A stretch of DNA of 64,000 nt, from assembly GCA_025059945.1 (NCBI GenBank), contig JANXDC010000015.1:184053-248052 (forward strand), written 5' to 3'. This DNA is from Bacteroidota bacterium (GTDB lineage Bacteria; Bacteroidota; Rhodothermia; JANXDC01). Shown piece by piece: positions 3,478 to 64,000 of the stretch. The position numbers were made by a program, and so were the translations under genes. The notes below the pieces were generated by a model. That model made no database searches and was not told the origin of the DNA. It worked only from the letters and a program-made list of their open reading frames with translations. Each line of letters opens with the position of its first letter. Position 1 is the first letter of the stretch.

Positions 3478-4957
3478 CGTATCCCTTAGCGGCAAGGTGC
3501 AGCAAACTCTAGAGCGCATCCGCCAGGACCCCCTGCTGGTGCGGATCGGGGAGATCGCCGATCGGCTTCAGCTGGAGGTCTACGTGGTAGGCGGGTACGT
3601 GCGGGACCTGCTGCTGGGGCGTCCGCACCCGGATATGGATTTTACCGTGATCGGTCCCGGTGGCGGCATCCGGCTCGCCCGGGAGGTGGCGCGCGCCTTA
3701 GGCGCGTCGCCGGTGCGTGTGTACCGGGAGTTCGGTACGGCCATGGTTTGCTACAACGAGCTGCGCCTGGAGTTCGTGGGCGCACGTCGGGAGAGCTACC
3801 GGCGCTCAAGCCGCAAACCCATTGTGGAGGAGGGTTCTCTGGAGGACGATCTGCGCAGGCGAGACTTTACCATAAACGCCCTTGCGGTGCGCTTGGGCGC
3901 CTCTGGAGGTGAACTAATCGACCGCTTCGGCGGCCTGGAGGACCTGAGGCGGCGTCGCATTCGCACCCCCGTGGAGCCCCATCTAACCTTCAACGACGAT
4001 CCGTTGCGCATGCTCCGGGCCATTCGCTTTGCCGCTCAGCTAGGCTTTGAATTGGATCCGGAGTTGCCCCCCGCGATTAGGGCGCTTAAGGAGCGCATCA
4101 GCATCGTCTCGGTGGAGCGCATCACAGAGGAGCTGCAAAAGCTTATGCTCGCCCCTTTTCCGGAGCGCGGCTGGAAGTTGCTGCACGAAACGGGGCTTTT
4201 GGAGTTCATCCTGCCCGAGTTGGCCGCCTTGGAGGGGGTGCAGACCGTAGCGGGCTACGGACACAAGGACAACCTCCGCCACACGCTCGGGGTGCTGGCC
4301 AAGGTCGCGGCCCTGACCGCTTCTTGGGAGGATAAGGAGCGCGCGCTTTGGCTGCGCTGGGCGGCGCTGCTGCACGACATCGGCAAGGCCCTCACCAAGC
4401 GCTTCAGTCCGGGCGAGGGCTGGACGTTTCACGGCCATGAGGAGGTCGGGGCGCGGCTGGTGGAGCCCATTTTCCGGCGCCTGCGCCTGCCCCTCGGAGA
4501 GCCCCTGCGGCGCGTGGAGAAGCTGGTGCGCCTGCACATGCGGCCCGTTGCGCTTTCGGCCCAGCCTGTTACGGACTCGGCCATCCGCCGGCTTCTAGTA
4601 GAAGCCGGCTCCGATCTGGAGGACCTGATGCTCCTGGCCCGGGCCGATATCACGTCGCGCAACCCCAGGCGGGTGCGCCAGCATCTGGAGGGGCTGGAAG
4701 GGCTCGAAGCTCGTCTGCGCGAGGTAGAAGAGCGCGACCGGCTGCGTCAGTTTCGGCCCCCGGTTGACGGCCACGACATTATGGCCCTGCTAAACCTCAA
4801 GCCGGGGCCCCTTGTGGGGCGCATCAAACGCGCCATCGAGGAGGCCATCTTAGAGGGCCGCATCCCCAACGAACGGGAGGCCGCCATAGCCTACATGATG
4901 CAAATTAAAGATCCCCTAATGGCCGATTTCGGCGCCGAAGGCCATGTGCGCGCGTAA
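3458..4957 (+). CDS. cca: CCA tRNA nucleotidyltransferase (poly(A) polymerase family head plus HD domain)
   Basis: Motifs LEVYVVGGYVRDLLLGRPHPDMDFTV and RRDFTINALA match the Pol-beta NTase head of CCA-adding enzymes. An HD domain follows (LLHDIGK...HGHEEVGA). The listed ORF start at 3308 overlaps the upstream gene; in-frame GTGs at 3458, 3467 and 3497 are candidate starts, so the start is uncertain. Confidence 0.8.
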   Translation: MSTVHPSVSLSGKVQQTLERIRQDPLLVRIGEIADRLQLEVYVVGGYVRDLLLGRPHPDMDFTVIGPGGGIRLAREVARALGASPVRVYREFGTAMVCYNELRLEFVGARRESYRRSSRKPIVEEGSLEDDLRRRDFTINALAVRLGASGGELIDRFGGLEDLRRRRIRTPVEPHLTFNDDPLRMLRAIRFAAQLGFELDPELPPAIRALKERISIVSVERITEELQKLMLAPFPERGWKLLHETGLLEFILPELAALEGVQTVAGYGHKDNLRHTLGVLAKVAALTASWEDKERALWLRWAALLHDIGKALTKRFSPGEGWTFHGHEEVGARLVEPIFRRLRLPLGEPLRRVEKLVRLHMRPVALSAQPVTDSAIRRLLVEAGSDLEDLMLLARADITSRNPRRVRQHLEGLEGLEARLREVEERDRLRQFRPPVDGHDIMALLNLKPGPLVGRIKRAIEEAILEGRIPNEREAAIAYMMQIKDPLMADFGAEGHVRA

Positions 4958-5615
4958 AGCCAAACCGGCCGGCCTCTTCATCGGTGTGGCCGGCAACATC
5001 GGGGTCGGTAAATCCTCCTTGACCGAGATCCTGAGCCGGCATTTTGGATGGCGGGCGCATTTCGAGGTGGTGGACCACAACCCGTATCTGCCGGACTTCT
5101 ACAGCGACATGCGTCGGTGGTCCTTTCACCTGCAGATCTTTTTTCTGTCCAATCGCTTCCGGCATCACCGCGAAATCGCGCAAGGCCTGGATGCGGCCGT
5201 GGTGGACCGCACCATCTACGAAGACGCGGAGATCTTCGCACGCAACCTCTTCGAGATGGGCCTCATGAGTGAGCGCGATTATTGGAGCTACCGCCAGCTG
5301 TATCGGACCATGATCGAGTTTCTGCGCCCCCCTGATCTGCTCATCTATCTGCGCGCCTCCGTGGGCACCCTCGTGGATCAGATCCGCCGCCGAGGTCGCC
5401 CGTACGAGGCGAACATCAGCATCGAATACCTGGATCGGCTCAACCGGCTCTATGAAGAATGGATCGGGGGCTATAAGCTGGGCCCTAAGCTTGTCTTGGA
5501 CACGGATGAGCTCGATTTTGTGCACAACCTAGAGCACCGCCACCAGATTCTCCAGACCATCGAGCGGCATCTTTTCGGGCTCTTTCCCATCAAGGAGGTC
5601 CCAAGGCGTTCGTGA
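4944..5615 (+). CDS. deoxynucleoside kinase (dCK/dGK family)
   Basis: P-loop GVAGNIGVGKSS, plus DRxxYED and the ERS motif characteristic of deoxynucleoside kinases. Overlaps the cca stop by 14 nt. Confidence 0.8.
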   Translation: MCARKAKPAGLFIGVAGNIGVGKSSLTEILSRHFGWRAHFEVVDHNPYLPDFYSDMRRWSFHLQIFFLSNRFRHHREIAQGLDAAVVDRTIYEDAEIFARNLFEMGLMSERDYWSYRQLYRTMIEFLRPPDLLIYLRASVGTLVDQIRRRGRPYEANISIEYLDRLNRLYEEWIGGYKLGPKLVLDTDELDFVHNLEHRHQILQTIERHLFGLFPIKEVPRRS

Positions 5616-7228
5616 CCGCCATCGCGTTGCTCCTGGAGGCATTCGGCTCTCTTTGGAGGGGGGACTCCTTATGGGCTGGCGGGGAGCGCTTCGGACGCGA
5701 TCCGTACGCGGATCTAGGGGGGCTGCTTCGGATGCGCCCCCTGGAGGTGCGCCAGGCCGGGCTGGGATGGGCTTGGTACTACGACCGAGGCCTTCCCCCA
5801 GGGGCGCGCGGCCTCTGGTACGGAGGCCTCCGGCTTGAGGATCCGTTCACGCGCGAGCCGCTTCCGATCCTAGCGCCCCAAGATGCGGGCGCGCTCCGCT
5901 GGCATCCGGCTTTGGGCTTTAGCTGGGCGGACCGGCCGGAACCCCCAGAACCGCTCACGGTGCTCGGCTATCATCAGGCCCTACGGGGAGGCCTGGAGGC
6001 CTTTGGCGCTGCGCACGCGCAGCGGCTCTACGGGTCGACGTGGCTTTCCCTGCAATACGGCCTGGGCTCAGACCGAGGGCGCTGGCCGGGAGAAGAGGTG
6101 CGCAACCGAACCGTGGGAGCCGGCATCTCCACTCGGCGCGGCCCGTGGCGATGGACGCTGCGATACGCGGCAGATGCTCACAACGGGCGCTCCAACGAAG
6201 GCTGGGCCGTGAGCAACCCGCCAGCGTGGAGTTTATGGGAACGCACCCCTCCCTGGATCGCCCCGCAGGGACGGACTTGGCGGCTGAGGCGCGAATGGGC
6301 TCGCCTACAGGCGCTCCATCCGAAATGGGGGGAGTGGGGGCTGGTGCGTCAGTTTTATCGGTACGCATTCGAAACGCGCTCCCGTCGTTTTGCCGCCTGG
6401 TCCCTGCAGGGACGTTTTCGCCAGACCGGGGGGGATTTCGAATGGGAGCTGGGCCGAGCCGAGGCGACCGATTCCGCCTGGCCGCAGGCCTTGCGTCTTT
6501 CCTGGCTTGAGGTGCGGATTCTGGATACGATCCGTCCTCCGCTCTGGGCGGGGATGCGCCTGCGTTGGGGGTCCAAGGGGGGAGAGGCCTTGGCGGGCGC
6601 CTGGGGAGCCCGCCTGGGCCGGGGAGACGTTTGGATGCTCGGCGGATGGATGGGCCCCGATTGGGAGGAGCGCGGCGCTCGAGGCCGCCAAGCCGGTATT
6701 GCCTTTCTGCACTTGAGCGGGGTCTGGTCGGATGCCCGTTGGCGCTGGGAGCCCTTCGTTACGCTTTCCCGAACCGATACGACCTCTGTGCTCGTGGCGG
6801 GGGCGGAGCTGAGCCTGCGATGGCGCCGCGGCCTCTGGGGGGGAACGGGTCGGCTTCTGGGCCAGCTTCAGCGAGGTGCTCCTCGGGCGCTACCGGAGCT
6901 CTCGGTGCGTCTAGAGGGGTACCGGGACTTTTTCGTAGCCCAGGGAGCCTGGCGATTCCGCTTGGAGGCCGTTCTCAGCGGGCAAAGCGGAGGTTGCCGA
7001 AGCGCATGGGATTTGACCCGTCTTCGGCGCTGGCCGGCTTCGGGCCCCGGCACTCCTCCCGGCCTGTGGCTTGATCTGCGTCTGTTCGCCCAATCCGGAC
7101 GCGCTTGGCCTTATCTGGCCCTGGACAACGCCCTAGATGGCCTACCGGGCGTTGTTTTGCCGACCGCCTATAGGCCCTTGGACCGCCGTCGGGTGCGCTG
7201 GGGACTTCTGTGGGAGCTCAGCTACTAG
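5612..7228 (+). CDS. hypothetical Trp/Arg/Gly-rich protein, putative outer-membrane beta-barrel
   Basis: ATGA start/stop overlap with the deoxynucleoside kinase gene. 538 aa with extreme Trp/Arg content. C-terminus ...RWGLLWELSY has alternating hydrophobics ending in an aromatic residue (beta-signal-like). No recognisable enzymatic motifs. Confidence 0.45.
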   Translation: MTAIALLLEAFGSLWRGDSLWAGGERFGRDPYADLGGLLRMRPLEVRQAGLGWAWYYDRGLPPGARGLWYGGLRLEDPFTREPLPILAPQDAGALRWHPALGFSWADRPEPPEPLTVLGYHQALRGGLEAFGAAHAQRLYGSTWLSLQYGLGSDRGRWPGEEVRNRTVGAGISTRRGPWRWTLRYAADAHNGRSNEGWAVSNPPAWSLWERTPPWIAPQGRTWRLRREWARLQALHPKWGEWGLVRQFYRYAFETRSRRFAAWSLQGRFRQTGGDFEWELGRAEATDSAWPQALRLSWLEVRILDTIRPPLWAGMRLRWGSKGGEALAGAWGARLGRGDVWMLGGWMGPDWEERGARGRQAGIAFLHLSGVWSDARWRWEPFVTLSRTDTTSVLVAGAELSLRWRRGLWGGTGRLLGQLQRGAPRALPELSVRLEGYRDFFVAQGAWRFRLEAVLSGQSGGCRSAWDLTRLRRWPASGPGTPPGLWLDLRLFAQSGRAWPYLALDNALDGLPGVVLPTAYRPLDRRRVRWGLLWELSY

Positions 7229-54057: not shown

Positions 54058-54068
54058 TAAAACGTTTC
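54058..54068. promoter_or_regulatory. LacI-type operator half-palindrome TAAAACGTTTC upstream of the oxidoreductase gene
   Basis: Contains the perfect palindrome AAACGTTT, 13 nt upstream of ATG 54081. Matches the 12-bp palindrome at the lacI promoter. Confidence 0.35.
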
Positions 54069-55263: not shown

Positions 55264-55309
55264 TTGACAAAGAGCCGGTGGCGTTATATATAGTGCCTAA
55301 AACGTTTTA
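55264..55309 (+). promoter_or_regulatory. sigma70-like promoter (TTGACA-N17-TATATA) with overlapping 12-bp perfect palindrome TAAAACGTTTTA (candidate LacI autoregulatory operator)
   Basis: TTGACA 55264-55269, TATATA 55287-55292, palindrome 55298-55309, ATG 55315. Confidence 0.5.
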
Positions 55310-55314
55310 ATGAA

Positions 55315-56349
55315 ATGCAAAAACGTCGTCCCACCATACGGGATGTGGCGGCTGAGGCGCGTGTTTCGGCCGCGACCGTATCGCTGGTCATGAGCGGCAA
55401 GGGCTATGTGCGGCCTGAGACGCGCGAACGTGTGCTGCGCGCAGCGCATCGGTTGGGCTATGTGCCCACACGGGCCGCGCAGGTCTTGGTGAGCCGCAAG
55501 ACGGGTAACGTGGGTTTTGTGCTGCGGGAGGACCACTTTACGCGAAGCGAACCCTTCTATACGCGCATCTTTCTGGGGGCTGAATTTGAGGCCCGTCAGC
55601 AGAACTACTACGTGCTGCTCACTACGATCCCGCGCACGTACGATCCGGAACGGCACGTGCCGCGTTTCCTGTTGGAGCGCAATGTAGATGGGGTGCTCAT
55701 CGCCGGCAAGGTCGACATAGCCTTTGTTGAACAGGTGGAGGCCGCGGGTCTGCCCTTGGTCTTGATCGACTTCGAAGTCGGGCAACGTCCGGCTGTGGTG
55801 ATCGATAACGTTGGGGGAGCCCGTGCCGCCGTGCAACACTTGTTTGCGCGGGGACACCGACGGGTGGCTTTTGTGGGCGCCGACATGAGCCATCCGAGCA
55901 TCGCCGGGCGCCTGGACGGCTACAGGTTAGCTTTTAGCGCAGCGGGTCTCGCCTTCGAGCCGGATTGGATCATCGCCGCCCCGGATCGAGAGCCCACTCG
56001 GGCTACGGGTTTAGAGCTTGGTCGGCGTTTGCTGGCTCTTCCGGAACGTCCAAGCGCGGTCTTTTGCGCCAACGATGCCTTGGCTCTGGGCGTGCTGGAT
56101 GCGGCCGAAGAGGCCGGTCTGCGGCTGCCTCAGGAGTTAGCTGTGGTGGGTTTTGACGACGTCGACGGGGCCGCTAGCGCCCGTCCGCCGCTGACGACCG
56201 TGCGGGTTTTCAAGGAGCAGCTGGGGGAACTGGCGCTGCGCTATTTGCTAGAGCTGCTTGAGGAAAAAGGAGCAAGCGCCCCCCGATACGCCCGTCGGCA
56301 GCATGCGATCTCGGTGCCGACTGAACTGGTGCTGCGGGCTACAAGCTGA
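55315..56349 (+). CDS. LacI-family transcriptional regulator
   Basis: N-terminal HTH (PTIRDVAAEARVSAATVSLVMSG) and a periplasmic-binding-protein-like sugar-binding domain. Confidence 0.85.
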   Translation: MQKRRPTIRDVAAEARVSAATVSLVMSGKGYVRPETRERVLRAAHRLGYVPTRAAQVLVSRKTGNVGFVLREDHFTRSEPFYTRIFLGAEFEARQQNYYVLLTTIPRTYDPERHVPRFLLERNVDGVLIAGKVDIAFVEQVEAAGLPLVLIDFEVGQRPAVVIDNVGGARAAVQHLFARGHRRVAFVGADMSHPSIAGRLDGYRLAFSAAGLAFEPDWIIAAPDREPTRATGLELGRRLLALPERPSAVFCANDALALGVLDAAEEAGLRLPQELAVVGFDDVDGAASARPPLTTVRVFKEQLGELALRYLLELLEEKGASAPRYARRQHAISVPTELVLRATS

Positions 56350-56420
56350 GCAGGCATCAAGCTGAAGGGATCGGTTTCCTTCAGCCAGCGCACAATAAAC
56401 TAAGCGGAGGAGGCCAGGTT

Positions 56421-59069
56421 ATGTGGAGGACGGTACAACCATGGCGTGGGCCCGCTTGGGGAGTCGTTGCATTTCTGCTGAGCGCCTCCTGGGCGCAAGC
56501 GCAGCAAGGTTGGGGTCATCTGTTGAGCCCGGAGTCTTCGTTTAATCTGCTCTCCAATGGCGGATTTGAGCTCGCCCGCCCCGCCTATTGGGAGCCCTCC
56601 GGGGCAGGGGCCACGTGGACGAGCGAGCGAGCCCGAACGCCGAACTATAGCCTCAAGCTCTCCGGCTCCGGGGCCGCCAGCTGGACGCAGCGGGAGGCCA
56701 TCCGGAACTGGACCCCTCGGTTCCCGGGCAACGCCGAGCTCGTGGTGGGCGGTTGGGTCTGGATGGAGAACGTCAATACGAACCCCACCACGGATGCGGG
56801 CAAGTTCCAGCTCGTCTTTGAGTTTTTTGACCGCCAGGGCCGAAACCTGCTCGGCGGCCCGTTGGTGATCGACTTGCCTCAACAGCAGCCCTCTACGGGC
56901 CGGTGGGTGCAAGTGAGCAACGAATCCATCGGGCCCCTGATTCTGCCGGGCGACGCTACGAGCGCCCGCATCACCTTCCGAAAGGGCGCTAGCGCTGTCG
57001 GGACCGCCTACCTGGATGACGTCTTCATCCGGGCCAGGGCCCAGAACGTCTGGCCGGGGGATATCTTCAACGCCAACATGGACGTGCCCGAGGGCTGGTA
57101 TTACTGGTGGAACAACTTCAGCGCGGGGCAATCCGACTGGCCGCAAAATCAGCCCTTCGTGGTGACCGCCACCACAGCAGGCATGCGCCGCGGATCGAGG
57201 GCTTTGCAGATGATCAAGCAGGATCAACCCGGGCAGACCGAGGCCGTGGCCATCTCGCAGCGAATGCCCGTCACGGTCGGAGAACCCTACTTGGTGAGCT
57301 TCTGGATGCGCTACGAGAACGTGGCCAACCCAGACCGGATCGGCACGCAAAACCACAACGTGGGTCTGACCGTCTTGTGGTACAACAACCTGCAGGGCGG
57401 CGCCGCCGGATGGGGCGAGATCGGTGGACTGGACATTCGGCTCAACGGCGACTACAACCCCATGGTCATCCCCTTGGCGCCCCGGCAGGCCTCGGCGGGA
57501 TGGACGCAATACGCCTTCGTCGTCTATCCTCGGGAGGGCGCCGTGGGCATGGAGATCCGCCTGCGCCAATGGCACGATTTCAAGGGAACCACGTACTGGG
57601 ACGACGTGGTGGTGGCCAAGGTCTCCGATGTCGTTGCGGCCCTACCCAATCTGCTCTCCAACGGCGGATTTGAGATCTTCCGTCCCGCTTACTGGGAGCC
57701 TTCTGGGGCCGGGGCCACCTGGACAAGCGAGCGCTACCGCACCCCGAACTATAGCCTCAAGCTCTCCGGCTCCGGGGCCGCCAGCTGGACGCAGCGGGAG
57801 GCCGTACGCAACTGGGTGGAGGGCATCCCCGGCTGGCGCAACCCGGAGATCGAGGTGGGCGGCTGGGTCTGGACGGAGAACGTCAATACGAACCCCACCA
57901 CGGATGCGGGCAAGTTCCAGCTCGTCTTTGAGTTTTTCGACGCTCAGGGGCGCGATGTGCTGGGTGGACCCGTGATTTTGGATGTTCCGCAGGCTCAGGC
58001 TTCCACCGGGGGGTGGGTGGAGATCTCCAGCCGCAGGCTCGGCCCGATCATATTCCCCGGCGAGAAGGCCGCGCGCAGAGCCCGCATCACGTTCCGTAAA
58101 GGGGCTAATGCGACCGGTACGGTCTATTTGGACGACGTTTTCATTCGTAAGGTCAACCCAAGCGTAGAAGGATGGCCCGGGGACTTTTTCAACGCCAACA
58201 TGGACGTGCCCGAGGGCTGGTACTACTGGTGGCTGGATTTCCCCTTGGGCAAGTCCGATTGGCCACAGAATCAGCCCTTCGTGGTGACCTTGAATGAGGC
58301 CGTAAAGTTTCAAGGTTCTTATAGCGTGCGCATGACCAAACGCGATCGGCCGGGTGCCTCCGAAGCTGTCGTGATCAGCCAGCGCGTGCCCATCACGCCC
58401 GGTCAACCCGTGTTGGTCAGCTACCGGTTGCGCCACGATGGGGTGCTCAACCCGGACTCGATCGGGCTCGGCAACTACAACGTGGGGCTGACCGCGCTCT
58501 GGTACACGAACCTGCAGGGCGGGGCCGCCGGATGGGGTGAGCGCGGCGGGGTAGACGTTCGGCTCAACGGCGACTACAACCCTATGGTCATCCCCCTGGC
58601 GCCCCGGCAGGCCTCAGCGGATTGGCGACATTACGCGATCGTCTTCTATCCGCCCGCGGATCCCCAGATCGTGGGCATGGAGCTGCGGCTTCGCCAATGG
58701 CACAACTTCTCCGGGACCACGTACTGGGATAACGTGGCGATCGTCCCCCTAGGTGGCGACCGGCTCTTTGTGTCCAACCAAGATCCGGTTCAGCTGGAGG
58801 TTCCGGAGCACCTGTACCTGCACCCGAATTACCCGAACCCGTTCCGGTTGGAGACGACGATCCGTTTCGAGCTGCCGCGCTCGGAATACGTGCGCCTGGA
58901 GGTTTACAACCTGCTCGGCCAGCGCGTGGCCGTACTCGTGGAAGGCCCCATGCCGACGGGTCGCCATGAGGTGCGTTTCCATGCCGGGGCGCTGCCAAGC
59001 GGCGTCTACCTGTACCGGCTGGAGGCTGGAGACCGGGTGGAGGTGCGCAAGATGACCCTCCTCAAATAA
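56421..59069 (+). CDS. secreted protein with two tandem about 368-aa units of CBM-like (CBM4/9/22-type, NGGFE) beta-sandwich domains and a T9SS C-terminal sorting domain
   Basis: RBS GGAGGAGG 7 nt upstream of the ATG. Signal peptide. Repeated NGGFE...YWEPSGAGATW motifs typical of carbohydrate-binding modules. C-terminal YPNPF...GVYLYRLEAGDRVEVRKMTLLK matches the T9SS type-A CTD. Confidence 0.65.
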   Translation: MWRTVQPWRGPAWGVVAFLLSASWAQAQQGWGHLLSPESSFNLLSNGGFELARPAYWEPSGAGATWTSERARTPNYSLKLSGSGAASWTQREAIRNWTPRFPGNAELVVGGWVWMENVNTNPTTDAGKFQLVFEFFDRQGRNLLGGPLVIDLPQQQPSTGRWVQVSNESIGPLILPGDATSARITFRKGASAVGTAYLDDVFIRARAQNVWPGDIFNANMDVPEGWYYWWNNFSAGQSDWPQNQPFVVTATTAGMRRGSRALQMIKQDQPGQTEAVAISQRMPVTVGEPYLVSFWMRYENVANPDRIGTQNHNVGLTVLWYNNLQGGAAGWGEIGGLDIRLNGDYNPMVIPLAPRQASAGWTQYAFVVYPREGAVGMEIRLRQWHDFKGTTYWDDVVVAKVSDVVAALPNLLSNGGFEIFRPAYWEPSGAGATWTSERYRTPNYSLKLSGSGAASWTQREAVRNWVEGIPGWRNPEIEVGGWVWTENVNTNPTTDAGKFQLVFEFFDAQGRDVLGGPVILDVPQAQASTGGWVEISSRRLGPIIFPGEKAARRARITFRKGANATGTVYLDDVFIRKVNPSVEGWPGDFFNANMDVPEGWYYWWLDFPLGKSDWPQNQPFVVTLNEAVKFQGSYSVRMTKRDRPGASEAVVISQRVPITPGQPVLVSYRLRHDGVLNPDSIGLGNYNVGLTALWYTNLQGGAAGWGERGGVDVRLNGDYNPMVIPLAPRQASADWRHYAIVFYPPADPQIVGMELRLRQWHNFSGTTYWDNVAIVPLGGDRLFVSNQDPVQLEVPEHLYLHPNYPNPFRLETTIRFELPRSEYVRLEVYNLLGQRVAVLVEGPMPTGRHEVRFHAGALPSGVYLYRLEAGDRVEVRKMTLLK
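56547..58754 (+). repeat. intragenic in-frame tandem duplication, 2 x 1,104 bp (368 codons)
   Basis: Near-identical nucleotide blocks (e.g. GAACTATAGCCTCAAGCTCTCCGGCTCCGGGGCCGCCAGCTGGACGCAGCGGGAGGCC at 56642 and 57746; GAGAACGTCAATACGAACCCCACCACGGATGCGGGCAAGTTCCAGCTCGTCTTTGAGTTTTT in both copies) are interspersed with diverged segments. Confidence 0.8.
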
Positions 59070-59131
59070 ATCCCCGTGGGCCGAGGTCCCTGACCGGCCT
59101 CGGCCCCTTCAAAAAGGCCGGCCTATAAGGG

Positions 59132-61792
59132 ATGCGTCGGAGTATGCGGGCGCTCGGATGGCTTGCTCTTGGCGGACTGCTTGCTTCGCCTGCCTGGGCG
59201 GGCACAACAGGCAAGATCGCCGGTCGCGTTACGGATGCGCGCACGGGCGAACCTCTGCCCGGGGTCAACGTGGTCATCGTGGGCACGCTGCAGGGCGCAG
59301 CTACGGACGCGGAGGGCTACTATACGATTCTAAACGTCAAGCCCGGCACCTACGCGGTGCGGGCCTCCTTTGTGGGTTATGCTCCGCAGACCGTCGAGAA
59401 CGTGCGGGTGCAGATCGACAAGACCACGATCGTGAACTTCGCTCTTCGTGAGGAGGCCGTGCAGACGCAAGAGGTCGTCATCACGGCCCAGCGACCCCTT
59501 GTGCAGCGGGATCTCACGGCCACGGCCACAGCCGTATCGGCTCAGGAGCTAGCCGTTTTGCCCGTGGAGAACTTTCAAGACGTGATCAACTTGCAGGCGG
59601 GCGTCGTAGAGGGCCGCTTCCGGGGGGGAAGGTTGGGGGAGGTGGCCTACATGGTCGACGGGATCCCAATCAACGATGTCTTTTCACGCAGTTTCGCCTT
59701 TCAGGTACAGAACAACGCCATTCAGGAGCTTGAGATCATCTCCGGCACCTTCAACGCCGAATACGGGCAGGCCATGTCGGGCGTGGTCAATATCGTCACC
59801 CGGGATGGAGGGGACCGATACGCGGGATCGGCAAGCGTCTACGTCGGTTCCTACGTAAGCCGGGAAGGGCAGCTTTTCCCACATCTTACTCCCATCCGGC
59901 CCAACCGAGCCCGAGAGTGGCAGGGGCTCTTTAGCGGCCCTGTTCCGGTCTTGGGCCGGCGTGCCGCGTTTTTCCTCTCCGGCCGTTACGCCTACAACGA
60001 GGGGCATTTGTTTGGGCGCCGCATCGTGCGGCCCGTAAGCTGGCGAGAAGGCGAAGGTACCTGGGTCGACGTGCAGGGCCGACGGGTTTTCGTGCCCGCT
60101 CTGGGCGATAGCGCCTGGGTTCCGATGAACTGGAGCGAACAGCTCACCTGGCAGGGCAAGCTCACGATCCGGCCTTGGGGCGGAAACCGGCTTTCGGTAA
60201 GTGGGCTTTGGCAACAAGACCGGGGCAAAGCCTACGATCACCTGTTCCGCTACAACCCCGACGGCTTGCCTACCCGCTACAGCACCGCCTGGTCGGCTAC
60301 GGCCACGTATACACACGTCTTTAGCCCGCGCGCCTTCGCCGAGCTTAAAGGGGCTCGCTTTCGCAACGAGCTCCGCTCCTACGTCTACGAAGACCCCTTA
60401 GATCCCCGCTACCCGCGGGATGACGCCCTGCGCCTGCTGGGCGGCAACTTCTCGTTTTACCGGGGCGGGGCGCGCATGCAGCATTTTCACCGCTACACGC
60501 AAACGTGGGTGCTGCGCGCCGACTTTACCGGTCAGCTTACGCGGCAGCATCAACTCAAGACGGGGCTTGAGTTTCGGGCTCATGAGCTTTACGTGCGGGA
60601 TTTCGAGGTCAAAAACAACCCCTCGACCGGCTTTAGGCCGGCCATTCCGCCCGTAAACACCCCGGATCACGTCCAGTATCGGCGCCGGCCCATCGAGTTT
60701 AGCGCCTACCTGCAGGACAAAATGGAGTTCGACTACTTGGTCGTCAACGCGGGCCTGCGCTTCGACTACTTCAACGCCCGAGGAGAGGTGCTGGAGGATT
60801 TCGGCCGGCCTCGGACTTCTCCTCGTCGGCCCTCTCGACCGAAATGGCAGCTTTCGCCCCGGCTGGGGCTGGCTTATCCCCTCTCGGAAGCCGGTGTGGT
60901 GCACCTGTCCTACGGGCACTTCTTCCAGATGCCCGCTTTCGAGTACCTCTATACGAACCCCGACTACATCTACGACCCCGAACGGGGGCTAAGTCGGGCC
61001 TTCGGATACGCCGATCTGGCCCCAGAGCAGACCGTGGCCTACGAGATCGGGCTGCAACAGGCCATAACCCCCGCGATCGGGCTCACCCTTACGGTGTACT
61101 ACAAGGACATCCGCAACCTGCTCGGCACCCGGCTAGAGGAGATCTCCCCCGGCTACGATGAGCCCTTTCCGTTATCCCGCTACGGCCGGTTTGTGAACCG
61201 GGACTACGGACAGGTCAAGGGCTTTTTGGCCTCTTTTGAGCGGCGTCACCTGGACGGCTGGGGGCTGAGCGTCGATTACACCTTCCAGATCGCCCGCGGC
61301 AACGCCAGCGATCCGCGTTCGGTGCTGATCAGCGAACAGGAGGGTGTAGAGCCGGAAAAGCAGCTTGTGCCCCTTGATTGGGACCGGCGCCATCAGCTGA
61401 ACCTGAGCCTGAGCTTAGGCAGACCGGATCGTTGGACCGTCACCCTGGTGGGCCGGTTGGGATCAGGTCTTCCGTACACCCCCTCGATCGCCGACGAACG
61501 CATCGCCGTTGAGAACTCAGCCCGTCGGCCCGGCACAAGCCAATTCGATCTGTTCGCGGCGCGCTACTTTCGAGCCGGCCCCTTTCAGTGGGGCGTCTTT
61601 GCGCGGATCTACAACCTATTCGACACCCGAAACGAAATCGGGGTCTACACGGACACAGGGCGGGCCTTTCCGAATCTGCGCTACTATTCCGGTGAGCCGC
61701 AGGGGCTGAATACCAAGGAGGAATTTCTGCGCAGGCCCGATTTTTACTCCCCGCCGCGGCTTGTGCAACTGGGTCTGCGGGTGGACTTTTAG
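59132..61792 (+). CDS. TonB-dependent outer-membrane receptor with N-terminal carboxypeptidase-regulatory-like domain
   Basis: Signal peptide, then a CarbopepD_reg-like domain (GKIAGRVTDARTGEPLPGVNVVIVGT...YTI), plug domain and a 22-strand barrel. C-terminal ...LGLRVDF. An alternative start is ATG 59144. Confidence 0.8.
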   Translation: MRRSMRALGWLALGGLLASPAWAGTTGKIAGRVTDARTGEPLPGVNVVIVGTLQGAATDAEGYYTILNVKPGTYAVRASFVGYAPQTVENVRVQIDKTTIVNFALREEAVQTQEVVITAQRPLVQRDLTATATAVSAQELAVLPVENFQDVINLQAGVVEGRFRGGRLGEVAYMVDGIPINDVFSRSFAFQVQNNAIQELEIISGTFNAEYGQAMSGVVNIVTRDGGDRYAGSASVYVGSYVSREGQLFPHLTPIRPNRAREWQGLFSGPVPVLGRRAAFFLSGRYAYNEGHLFGRRIVRPVSWREGEGTWVDVQGRRVFVPALGDSAWVPMNWSEQLTWQGKLTIRPWGGNRLSVSGLWQQDRGKAYDHLFRYNPDGLPTRYSTAWSATATYTHVFSPRAFAELKGARFRNELRSYVYEDPLDPRYPRDDALRLLGGNFSFYRGGARMQHFHRYTQTWVLRADFTGQLTRQHQLKTGLEFRAHELYVRDFEVKNNPSTGFRPAIPPVNTPDHVQYRRRPIEFSAYLQDKMEFDYLVVNAGLRFDYFNARGEVLEDFGRPRTSPRRPSRPKWQLSPRLGLAYPLSEAGVVHLSYGHFFQMPAFEYLYTNPDYIYDPERGLSRAFGYADLAPEQTVAYEIGLQQAITPAIGLTLTVYYKDIRNLLGTRLEEISPGYDEPFPLSRYGRFVNRDYGQVKGFLASFERRHLDGWGLSVDYTFQIARGNASDPRSVLISEQEGVEPEKQLVPLDWDRRHQLNLSLSLGRPDRWTVTLVGRLGSGLPYTPSIADERIAVENSARRPGTSQFDLFAARYFRAGPFQWGVFARIYNLFDTRNEIGVYTDTGRAFPNLRYYSGEPQGLNTKEEFLRRPDFYSPPRLVQLGLRVDF

Positions 61793-61811
61793 CGCAAGGA
61801 CCGGTGTCGCT

Positions 61812-63548
61812 ATGCGGCGTTGCTTGTGTCTACTTGGTCTGCTCCTAGTCGGCCTGCCGCTACGGGGCCAGGACCGGACCCCCCTGGCCTGGGTGGGATC
61901 TGAGGCGATCGATCGGCAGACGTTTTGGGAGCGCTACGAACAGAGCCTATGGATCGGCCGGGAGCGAGGCCGCCTGCAAGACGTCCCCAAGCATGGCTTT
62001 CTGTTGGCCCTGATCGCCGAGCGGCTGTTGGCCCAAGAAGGGGCTCAGATGAAGCTGGATCAGGCCCCTCCTGTGCGGACTTTGCTCGATGAGATCGAGC
62101 GCATGCTGCTTTTGGACGCGCTTTATCGTGTTGAGATCGGAGAGCCGGTCCAAGTGGCGGCTCGCGAGATAGAGGAAGCGGCTTGGCGGCGGCTACAGCC
62201 GGTTCACTTCGCCTATGTTGTCCTGGCTAGCTCCGAGCAGGCGGAGGCCGCTCGCGCGAGCTTGCTTCGGGCTTCGGATCCTATAGCGGCCTTCGACTCC
62301 CTGCAGCGCGCGCTCGGTCAAGAGGGGCAGCGGCGGATCGGGCGCTGGGGCGACTTCTATGAGCCTATAGAGCGCCAGCTGTACGAGGAGCTCAAGCCCT
62401 CCGAAGTGGGCCGTCCCATCGAGGTAGAAGGGCGTTTTTACCTGCTACAGCTTCGCGAGCGCCAGCGGCGCCCGTTTGTCCTGCCCGCGGATCTTGAACA
62501 AGCGCGCTACGAGACAGCCCGCATCCTGCGCATGCGGCGGGAGCGGGATCGGTTTTACGCGTTTTTATCGGCCTTCGGACAGGGCAAAACGGCCCAGGTC
62601 TCGCAGGAGCTGTTCGAACGCCTCTGTAGGGCGATCACCGAGCGGCTTGCGATCCGGGCGGAAAAGGCCCCTCCGGGACGGCCGTTGCGGCGTTTGGCCG
62701 CCGATTGGGCCGCGCTGCGCGCGGCTCTGCAGGACGCGCTTCCGGAGCCCTTCATCGAGGCCCCGAGCTGGAGGCGCTCTTTGGGCTACGTGCTGGACCG
62801 GCTTGCGCACCGGTCCTTTGCGGTTGTGCGGCTTGGTCCAACCGTCGCCCACCGGCTTCGGGGGGTTCTTTGGGAGCTGATCGCGGAGGAATTCCTGCTT
62901 GAAGAGGTCCGAGCGCGAGGCCTGGAGCAGCGGCCGGAGCTTAGGCGAGATCTGGAGCTGTGGCGCACCGCTTACCTAGCCTGGCGCCGGCAGCGGCTGT
63001 TTGCGGATTCCCTGCGGCAAGCCTGGTCGGATCTGGCCTACGGGGTCCGTCTTGTCCGCTGGGAGGCCGCATCCGAGCAAGCGGCCCGGTCCCTGCGTTC
63101 GGAGCTGGAACGGGGCCTCATCGTGCCGGCCGATACCACGGAGGAGCTGGCTCCGCTTCTTGCGGAACCCCTGCGGGCGCTCGTTGTGAGCTCGGAAATC
63201 GAGCAGATTCTGGGTCCGTTTCCGGAGCGGGGCCAGTGGGCGTTTTATCGCGTGTTGGCGCGTCGCAAGCTTAAGCCGGAAGAGCTTGAAAAGGCCGTGG
63301 AGCGAGCTCTGCAGGCGCATATCGCGCATCTGGCTCGACAAGCCGGGGTGCGCATCGATCTGCGGGCCCTAGAGGAGACCCCTGTCAGGACCGCCCACAA
63401 CTTGCTCGCTGTGCGCCTGCTGGGCTTTGGGTTTCGCCTTCTGAGCGCTCCGCCGGTGTATCCGCTTCTGGAGTGGTACGACCTCATGGACCGCGCTCGC
63501 CTGTACGCGGCGCGTCTTCTACCCGCTGCACAGGAGGAGGAGCAATGA
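61812..63548 (+). CDS. hypothetical periplasmic protein (possibly SurA-N-like chaperone fold)
   Basis: Start ATG 61812 (MRRCLCLLGLLLVGLPLRGQ, a signal peptide). Alpha-helical, Arg/Glu/Leu-rich, with no catalytic motif recognised. Confidence 0.4.
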   Translation: MRRCLCLLGLLLVGLPLRGQDRTPLAWVGSEAIDRQTFWERYEQSLWIGRERGRLQDVPKHGFLLALIAERLLAQEGAQMKLDQAPPVRTLLDEIERMLLLDALYRVEIGEPVQVAAREIEEAAWRRLQPVHFAYVVLASSEQAEAARASLLRASDPIAAFDSLQRALGQEGQRRIGRWGDFYEPIERQLYEELKPSEVGRPIEVEGRFYLLQLRERQRRPFVLPADLEQARYETARILRMRRERDRFYAFLSAFGQGKTAQVSQELFERLCRAITERLAIRAEKAPPGRPLRRLAADWAALRAALQDALPEPFIEAPSWRRSLGYVLDRLAHRSFAVVRLGPTVAHRLRGVLWELIAEEFLLEEVRARGLEQRPELRRDLELWRTAYLAWRRQRLFADSLRQAWSDLAYGVRLVRWEAASEQAARSLRSELERGLIVPADTTEELAPLLAEPLRALVVSSEIEQILGPFPERGQWAFYRVLARRKLKPEELEKAVERALQAHIAHLARQAGVRIDLRALEETPVRTAHNLLAVRLLGFGFRLLSAPPVYPLLEWYDLMDRARLYAARLLPAAQEEEQ

Positions 63549-64000
63549 GGCGCCCGGGTCTTCTGGGGCTGGCTCTTTTGGCGGGTTGGCTTTCCCTTGG
63601 CGTTCCCCCCGCGTGGGGGCAACGCAAACCCGATCCCAACAAGGGCGACAACAAGTGGACGCAGTGGGGGGTTCTGGACGGCAACCGGGTCCGTACGCTC
63701 TTCGCCAATCACGGCGAGGTGGCGCGTTGGCCCGATCAACCCTCCGGGGAATGGCCCAAGGGCAGCGGCCGGTCCTACGTAGACGGGGTGGCTGTGGTCG
63801 TCTCCGCCCGCACGCGCGACAGCCGGGGGCAGTGGATTTATCCCATGAGCACGAACTATCGGGAGTTCATCGACCGGGACCCCATCACGAAGGTGCCCTG
63901 GGGGTGGGCCCCACTGCCGGGTTATGCGAATCCGCGTCAGCCCTCCCCCGCCCGGTCTGATGATCCCGGCACCTGGCCCCCGTTTTGGCCGGATCGGCCT
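63545..64000 (+). CDS. hypothetical secreted protein (3' truncated by window end)
   Basis: ATG 63545 forms an ATGA overlap with the upstream stop. Signal peptide MRRPGLLGLALLAGWLSLGVPPAWGQ. Frame is open to the window end (152 codons) with coding-like GC3. Not in the ORF track because no stop is present. Confidence 0.4.
   Translation, partial: MRRPGLLGLALLAGWLSLGVPPAWGQRKPDPNKGDNKWTQWGVLDGNRVRTLFANHGEVARWPDQPSGEWPKGSGRSYVDGVAVVVSARTRDSRGQWIYPMSTNYREFIDRDPITKVPWGWAPLPGYANPRQPSPARSDDPGTWPPFWPDRP

Follow-up and report, generated by a model that had tools for sequence, protein, structure and literature searches.

In bacteria, gene conversion keeps duplicate genes such as tufA and tufB near-identical within a genome while they diverge between species, and such paralogues carry mosaic tracts. 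HagA of Porphyromonas gingivalis, a type IX secretion system (T9SS) cargo protein, has two to four 1.3-kb direct repeats, the number of which varies among strains (PMC13390158). The Periscope Proteins, among them SasG, Rib, Sgo_0707, and CdrA, are encoded by long, near-identical DNA repeats of folded domains, and recombination alters their repeat number between strains (PMC8201768). Adjacent domains in these proteins can be far more than 50% identical, against the usual rule by which misfolding is avoided (PMC8201768). Among surface glycan-binding proteins, CHU_1279 of Cytophaga hutchinsonii has been described (PMC12016534). Here, we compare with these systems a gene for an 882-aa T9SS cargo protein with two tandem repeat units, located at positions 56421 to 59069 on the plus strand of a 64,000-nt stretch of contig JANXDC010000015.1 (the window).

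A preliminary description of the window had proposed that this gene contains an in-frame tandem duplication with a mosaic of near-identical and diverged stretches, that this mosaic reflects ongoing gene conversion, and that the protein is a multivalent glycan binder. The account that we consider likely is that the gene encodes a glycan-capturing T9SS protein with an old internal duplication, that recombination homogenizes the two units across the family, and that the window lineage has escaped from this homogenization with conversion patches left behind.

Mosaic divergence of the repeat units

The gene is a single open reading frame (ORF) whose product is identical to NCBI MCS7155945.1; that entry belongs to a Bacteroidota/Rhodothermia metagenome-assembled genome (MAG) and is named “T9SS type A sorting domain-containing protein.” The proposed tandem duplication is real. 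Unit 1 (56547 to 57650, aa 43 to 410) has 368 codons; it was recognized as a repeat by its LLSNGGFE start and by BLASTP, and its modules were recognized in a structure model. Unit 2 (57651 to 58778, aa 411 to 786), delimited by its LLSNGGFE start and BLASTP, has 376 codons rather than 368 and ends at 58778 rather than at 58754, as had been stated. Four 2-codon (6-nt) indels make it 8 codons (24 nt) longer than unit 1. LLSNGGFE opens both units in frame, at aa 43 and aa 411. The units aligned by BLASTP with 514 bits and 256/367 identities (70% protein identity), and local alignment showed the two halves to be co-linear across 356 codons. A repeat search found six co-linear direct-repeat blocks of 75 to 88% nucleotide identity, the spacing of which grows from 1104 to 1128 nt. 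In each unit, the final ~12 codons lie outside the repeat proper and belong to the junction or linker. Tandem Repeats Finder gave no report on the gene; its period limit of 500 is below the repeat period.

Overall, the units share 72% nucleotide identity and 59% identity at third codon positions, and the divergence between them is not uniform. Five exact runs of 21 to 63 nt stand out from this background, which agrees with the mosaic that had been described, and the six peptide segments that had been quoted as shared are all present. Identity tract 1 (60 nt, PNYSLKLSGSGAASWTQREA) lies at 56640 to 56699 and is identical to 57744 to 57803, and tract 2 (63 nt, ENVNTNPTTDAGKFQLVFEF) lies at 56765 to 56827 and is identical to 57875 to 57937. 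Tracts 3, 4, and 5 encode FNANMDVPEGW (35 nt, 57066 to 57100, identical to 58188 to 58222), NQPFVVT (21 nt, 57147 to 57167, identical to 58269 to 58289), and RLNGDYN (25 nt, 57436 to 57460, identical to 58558 to 58582), respectively; both copies of every tract are on the plus strand. The longest identical run, 63 nt, compares with a mean of 19 nt and a maximum of 42 nt in 2000 permutations that preserved codon position. Among 235 degenerate codons with identical amino acids in the two units, the 85 synonymous differences are clustered, with a longest difference-free run of 21 codons (P = 0.0036; P = 0.00015 for the three longest runs).

Segment-wise dN/dS analysis of the codon-aligned units gave the same division. 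The 65 tract codons contain no amino acid differences (0/65) and no synonymous differences (0/62) between unit 1 and unit 2, i.e., dS = dN = 0. The non-tract columns, about 81% of the repeat, have a dS of 1.19, a dN of 0.285, and an omega of 0.24, which points to purifying selection on both units. This pattern could in principle arise after a single old duplication without any conversion, if the identical stretches were the motifs under the strongest purifying selection at the protein or mRNA level. The tracts do coincide with recognizable motifs, and the fraction of synonymous differences climbs from 0.15 to 0.58 with local amino acid divergence. GC content at third codon positions is 81% in the gene, so that codon bias lowers synonymous divergence generally, and some other diverged unit pairs (loci L017 and L011) are quiet in the same columns too. 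However, when the window units are compared with units of other genomes, the same tract columns contain 36% amino acid differences and 49% synonymous differences among identical residues (dS of 0.8 to 3 and dN of 0.23 to 0.33 by NG86), only slightly below the 46% and 60% found in the non-tract columns. Because the tract columns have diverged between genomes, constraint on the protein or on the nucleotide sequence does not account for the tracts in the window gene. In addition, only ~36% of the non-tract codons are identical between the units, so identical runs of 20 codons are not expected by chance. Selective constraint is refuted by this divergence between genomes and is a very improbable explanation. 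These data support the identification of the tracts as short gene conversion patches with a common ancestor far younger than that of the rest of the repeat. The preliminary description was thus right to prefer conversion to a single old, uniformly diverging duplication.

We also considered that a unit, or blocks of it, had been replaced by recombination with a diverged allele, in which case the tracts would be the remains of a once-homogenized pair. Outside the tracts, the window units are 0.656 identical in amino acid sequence to each other versus 0.62 to 0.65 to units from other genera, a star-like picture, and members of the family are widespread among Rhodothermales and Balneolales that occur together. 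Since the units are as distant from each other as from those of other genera, import of a foreign unit is inseparable from divergence in situ on this measure, and this counts against our account. On the other side, no lineage sampled is closer to either window unit than the partner unit is, the same divergent blocks are present in four sister assemblies, and five short tracts interleaved with divergent blocks would require several import events. We regard import as unlikely and conclude that the window gene is an old duplication, largely escaped from homogenization, with short conversion patches left. The five 21- to 63-nt patches are the footprint of short, much younger conversion events. Conversion may now be limited to short patches because, given the divergence and the four 6-nt indels, RecA-type pairing would find identity over short stretches only.

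Concerted evolution and unit number in the family

A protein search found 113 family members, which a hidden Markov model of the unit divided into forms with one, two, or three units. One-unit forms are about 500 to 520 aa long (e.g., in Rhodothermus marinus), two-unit forms comprise 53 proteins, and three-unit forms are about 1177 and about 1340 aa long (e.g., in KSB1). The nearest neighbor of both units was their own partner in 38/53 two-unit proteins, with within-protein unit identities of up to 0.98 versus 0.65 to 0.88 to the closest other protein. In 15/53, each unit paired instead with the unit at the corresponding position in another species, and this position-specific orthology indicates that the duplication is older than those species splits. 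The window gene is marginal by the same criterion, with an identity of 0.69 to the partner versus 0.65 and 0.61.

The comparison was extended to DNA at 45 genomic loci, which gave 20 complete two-unit genes. Units are about 100% nucleotide identical across ~1.09 kb in 7/20 of these genes, while 8/20 have perfect tracts of 220 to 940 nt broken by blocks dense in synonymous and nonsynonymous changes. Strongly diverged units, with nucleotide identities of 0.67 to 0.82, are found in 5/20 and in the window gene. Unit nucleotide identity was 0.90 to 0.98 at 14/20 complete related loci, and every unit pair tested was significantly mosaic in a permutation test. The pattern is also found in isolate or chromosome-level records (CP030158, CP020382, OZ245822, and NZ_OZ243912) and is therefore independent of short-read MAGs. 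Perfect unit identity in short-read MAGs may be a product of assembly in part, which weakens the case for homogenization to that extent.

Alternatively, a single-unit gene could have been duplicated recently, repeatedly, and independently in each lineage, which would make the units near-identical across the family. Forms with one unit are common, and those in finished R. marinus genomes are real. However, the alignment columns that bound the repeat on either side are the same in every complete two-unit gene, and a consensus of the inter-unit linker (…DV…LPN-LLSNGGFE) is common to Rhodothermales and Balneolales. The common boundaries and linker indicate one ancestral duplication rather than repeated reduplication, and no breakpoints that differ between lineages were seen among these genes. 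The 15 two-unit proteins with position-specific orthology likewise place the duplication before species splits, and one recent duplication could not produce the perfect tracts interleaved with diverged blocks in the intermediate genomes.

Exchange between units was also seen at the strain level. The genomes of two Roseithermus sacchariphilus isolates are 98.7% identical over the locus. Their repeat core lacks position-specific sites. At 4 strain-specific “concerted” sites, both units of one strain differ from the two units of the other, and 7 sites that form two tight clusters are “crossed”; all 36 position-specific sites are in the flanks just outside the repeat. These sites show strain-level exchange between the units, and the crossed and concerted sites tell against independent reduplication, which we consider hardly tenable. 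We conclude that the family undergoes textbook concerted evolution of an intragenic 1.1-kb repeat, a known process that requires no new mechanism. A literature search found no paper on this repeat-protein family. The 1.1-kb duplication is old, with shared boundaries and linker in the two orders, and in most lineages intragenic homologous recombination, by gene conversion or unequal crossing-over, keeps the units about 90 to 100% identical at the DNA level. Recombination between units also yields the one-unit and three-unit forms.

The process named in the preliminary description, ongoing gene conversion, thus operates in the family, but it is not proven for the window lineage. Four sister assemblies are 99.6 to 99.9% identical to the window over 13.6 kb. 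Two of them, L049 and L050, differ from the window in the diverged 71-nt patch of unit 2 that separates tracts 1 and 2 (57804 to 57874, plus strand; about 7384 to 7448 in L049 and L050). The differences, 20 substitutions and a 6-nt deletion, all fall within this patch, which in both assemblies is exactly the unit 1 sequence, so that tracts 1 and 2 merge into one tract of ~190 nt. In the rest of the sequence, L050 is the assembly nearest to the window and L051 the one nearest to L049; the patch state conflicts with the haplotype background. It follows the assembly project instead, since both JAVQ-prefixed assemblies are “converted” and the other three assemblies are not, which tells against conversion. 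The patch also coincides exactly with the bubble that separates tracts 1 and 2, the sole identity tracts of 55 nt or more. These tracts are long enough to act as shared k-mers at a k of ~55, and the patch could thus be the collapse of a de Bruijn graph bubble. We had considered the patch as proof of ongoing conversion and downgraded it because it tracks assembly project and not haplotype; whether it is a conversion polymorphism or an assembly artifact is unproven. Of three other single-nucleotide polymorphisms in the repeat among the sister assemblies, only one moves toward the paralogue, and these sites give no signal. No further strains of the window lineage were found when JGI metagenome contigs were scanned twice for exact matches, and a look-up of the window protein in the contig index gave no record.

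Unit number varies from one to three across the family, and the five assemblies of the window lineage all have two units. Three finished R. marinus genomes have a locus with the length of one unit, and the idea that all one-unit homologues are collapsed assemblies was rejected for this species on that basis. Collapse is possible for one-unit homologues in short-read MAGs. The gene is broken in the finished R. marinus loci (L054; L055, CP001807.1, 3316 to 4864; L056, AP019796.1, 2471 to 5107). It is split into ORFs of 223 aa and 287 aa in R. marinus DSM 4252 and CP172416, and a gene for a DDE transposase interrupts it in R. marinus AA2-13. A short-read R. marinus assembly (L048, ERZ795093 NODE_1, 4139 to 6344), which was compared with L046, has 99.8% identical flanks and a perfect 1096-nt direct repeat, giving two units in the place of the one unit of finished genomes. 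The sorting domain at the C terminus of its product is not in frame. This two-unit state is either real copy number variation or an assembly error. The gene runs into a contig end in 18/45 related loci, mostly short-read MAGs (L026 to L040 and L042 to L045), which is consistent with a near-identical 1.1-kb repeat breaking assemblies; in L026, the gene is cut by the start of a chromosome record instead.

Predicted fold and genomic setting

The 882-aa protein begins with a probable Sec signal peptide (aa 1 to 27, …ASWAQA|QQ, 56421 to 56501), read from the translation with an inferred cleavage site. By inspection, a hydrophobic stretch is followed by AQA|QQ at aa 25 to 29, and aa 13 to 29 form a low-confidence N-terminal helix in the structure model. 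The T9SS type A C-terminal sorting domain (CTD; aa 804 to 882, 58830 to 59066) that had been proposed is supported, with 37.1 bits to TIGR04183 (cutoff of 23) and 28.5 bits to Pfam Por_Secre_tail PF18962 (cutoff of 27). A search of Protein Data Bank (PDB) sequences with the family profile matched the T9SS CTD chain 8glj_D. The full-length AlphaFold2 model (predicted local distance difference test score [pLDDT] of 90, predicted template modeling score of 0.81) has four sandwiches, a disordered linker (aa 785 to 797), and a C-terminal beta-sandwich (aa 811 to 880). Profile scans and the model revealed a CTD, two units, and a signal peptide as the only domains of the protein, and no catalytic domain was found. 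Together, these results show that the gene product is a noncatalytic protein of two tandem ~370-residue units with a probable signal peptide and a T9SS type A CTD.

Structure prediction for one unit returned two beta-sandwiches (pLDDT of 88.6), and a fold like that of carbohydrate-binding modules (CBMs) was recognized, as had been anticipated. The top Foldseek match was 4xup, the tandem CBM22-1-CBM22-2 (E value of 1e−11), and the top structural matches were CBM16, CBM4-2, CBM22, CBM70, and a porphyran-binding CBM from a T9SS protein. The beta-sandwich (jelly-roll) fold of the units superimposes on solved CBMs. Unit 1 consists of module 1 (roughly aa 43 to 212), module 2 (roughly aa 213 to 400), and the inter-unit linker of ~12 aa. 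The C-terminal halves of the two modules of this unit (56547 to 57650) are 30% identical (E value of 2e−4), and both modules end in …Y(L/W)DDV; they are paralogous, and the unit itself thus goes back to an older module duplication. The preliminary description had called both modules NGGFE type. NGGFE is found in the first module only, the second has NANMD, and sequence support for a CBM assignment is weak, although the proposed fold holds. The models show each unit as a pair of predicted CBM4/9/16/22-like beta-sandwiches that are distant paralogues of each other. Pfam CBM_4_9 (PF02018) matched the whole protein with 40.6 bits (cutoff of 25.9), the best stretch covering profile positions 2 to 75 of 136, and Trp, Tyr, Asp, and Asn are invariant at many positions in the family.

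At each of the 45 loci, the repeat gene is flanked by the genes for a LacI-type regulator and a TonB-dependent receptor, and all genes of the window described here are on the plus strand. The LacI-family regulator directly upstream (55315 to 56349; Pfam LacI, Peripla_BP_3, and Peripla_BP_1) is kept at every related locus. So is the TonB-dependent receptor directly downstream (59132 to 61792; CarboxypepD_reg, plug, and barrel), which is 54 to 71% identical among the loci. From fold and synteny, which are the whole basis for this reading, the protein would capture a soluble or polymeric glycan at the cell surface for the adjacent receptor. Its expression would be under the control of the adjacent LacI-family repressor, and it would do the job of a surface glycan-binding protein (SGBP) in a cassette that has no SusD gene.

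Several observations weigh against this functional reading. Single modules matched CBM_4_9 with 15.7 to 16.8 bits or not at all (cutoff of 25.9), the matches of both half-units of unit 1 being weak and partial. The family profile found no solved structure related by sequence in the PDB besides the CTD, the jelly-roll fold is also found in lyases, toxins, and adhesins, and the sequence directly upstream of the repeat gene showed no LacI-type palindrome. The multivalent glycan binder suggested by the preliminary description is therefore best termed putative, a reading from fold and synteny. The units could instead make up a structural or adhesive surface protein, like the adhesin domains of HagA and the gingipains, or an enzyme with a jelly-roll fold, for example, a polysaccharide lyase. 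The top structural matches, however, are all bona fide CBMs, and its neighbors are constant in 45/45 loci, with a LacI-type sugar regulator on one side of the gene and a TonB-dependent receptor on the other. We consider a function other than glycan binding doubtful, if conceivable, and retain glycan capture as the working interpretation.

The start of a conserved protein of ~1100 aa (63545 to 64000) runs past the end of the window and was recognized by tblastn with 75 to 79% identity to the proteins of L001 and L003. In relatives, the gene for this protein directly follows that for the receptor (L003, 13339 to 16629; L001, 13872 to 17306). With 56 to 87% identity across Rhodothermales and Balneolales, the protein is better conserved than the repeat protein. 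Apart from a weak CTD/FlgD_ig-like C terminus, it has no relative in Pfam or the PDB, and it is possibly a T9SS partner in the cassette with a catalytic role. A PorV/PorQ-family barrel (NF033709, 202 bits, cutoff of 90) is always next in relatives; its position in the window lies beyond base 64000. An ORF for a SurA-like protein (61761 to 63548; 595 aa, 578 aa in the sister assemblies) with weak matches to SurA_N_3 and Rotamase_2 is located between the receptor and ~1100-aa genes in the window lineage only, and no counterpart was found in the 45 related loci at an E value of ≤1e−10.

No SusD gene was found at the locus or in related cassettes. The receptor scored 76.6 bits against the SusC/RagA model TIGR04056 (cutoff of 368), in its N-terminal part only. 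Without SusD and with a receptor below the SusC/RagA cutoff, the locus is not a canonical polysaccharide utilization locus (PUL). The cassette looks like a SusD-less glycan uptake system, judging by its gene content.

Two palindromes of the LacI type were found versus 0.34 expected, and they are likely LacI-type operators. The first, AAAACGTTTT, is perfect and lies at 55299 to 55308, 8 nt upstream of the lacI-type start codon. The second, AAACGTTT, lies at 54060 to 54067, 14 nt upstream of the start of a gene for a GFO/IDH/MocA oxidoreductase (54081). GC-rich hairpins without a clear T run are located just past the stop codon of the regulator gene (56361 to 56385; GCTGAAGG, 9 nt, CCTTCAGC) and just past that of the repeat gene (59078 to 59106; GGGCCGAGG, 11 nt, CCTCGGCCC).

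Comparison with described systems

The cassette of LacI regulator, T9SS CBM-repeat protein, TonB-dependent receptor, ~1100-aa protein, and PorV/PorQ barrel is universally linked in Rhodothermales and Balneolales and is uncharacterized. Its culturable hosts include R. marinus and Roseithermus. The repeat also carries a warning for genome assembly, since it breaks or may collapse short-read assemblies and can give rise to conversion-like differences that track the assembler and not the strain.

Functionally, the nearest described proteins are the SGBPs of PULs (SusE/F, SGBP-B, and CHU_1279 of C. hutchinsonii), which are likewise noncatalytic and multimodular and are encoded next to a TonB-dependent transporter and a sugar regulator. 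BtSGBP-B (7kwb) was a Foldseek match to the unit (E value of 2e−8). The SGBPs, however, are lipoproteins in SusC/SusD loci, while the window protein would be anchored through a T9SS CTD and its locus has no SusD gene. Structurally, the nearest are tandem CBM pairs such as CBM22-1-CBM22-2 of Paenibacillus Xyn10C (4xup) and CBM4-1/CBM4-2 of R. marinus Xyn10A. The CBM pairs of xylanases sit on a catalytic domain, which the window protein lacks, and identity is 13 to 20%.

HagA shares the genetics of its repeats with the window family, and no sequence homology between them was detected. HagA is a host adhesin and heme acquisition factor of a pathogen, whereas the window family comes from free-living thermophilic or halophilic Rhodothermales and Balneolales. 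Unlike HagA, the family is encoded in a LacI/TonB receptor cassette, and its units most resemble CBM4/16/22. In systems of the tufA/tufB type, the copies are separate genes. Here, they are in-frame parts of one gene, and they range from fully homogenized to almost fully escaped. A single two-copy repeat thus spans 100% identity, long-tract mosaics, and 57 to 72% identity with patches of 20 to 60 nt, and it could show how conversion decays as paralogues diverge.

Like the Periscope Proteins, members of the window family are putative surface proteins with tandem repeats, intragenic recombination, and adjacent domains that are more than 50% identical. They differ in having one to three units and no long arrays, and binding would be a task of the repeat modules themselves. 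The window protein has no stalk that projects a separate N-terminal functional domain, and it would be anchored by its T9SS CTD. Periscope Proteins have highly identical DNA repeats; at 72%, the window gene lacks this feature, while many relatives, at 95 to 100%, have it. A more speculative view, to which we give little weight, is that near-identity of the units is itself selected, either for bivalent binding to a regularly repeating polymer or because switching among one, two, and three units tunes reach or strength, and that the units of escaped lineages, including the window organism, have split into different specificities. If this were true, switching of unit number would be a Gram-negative, T9SS-anchored counterpart of the length-variable surface proteins.

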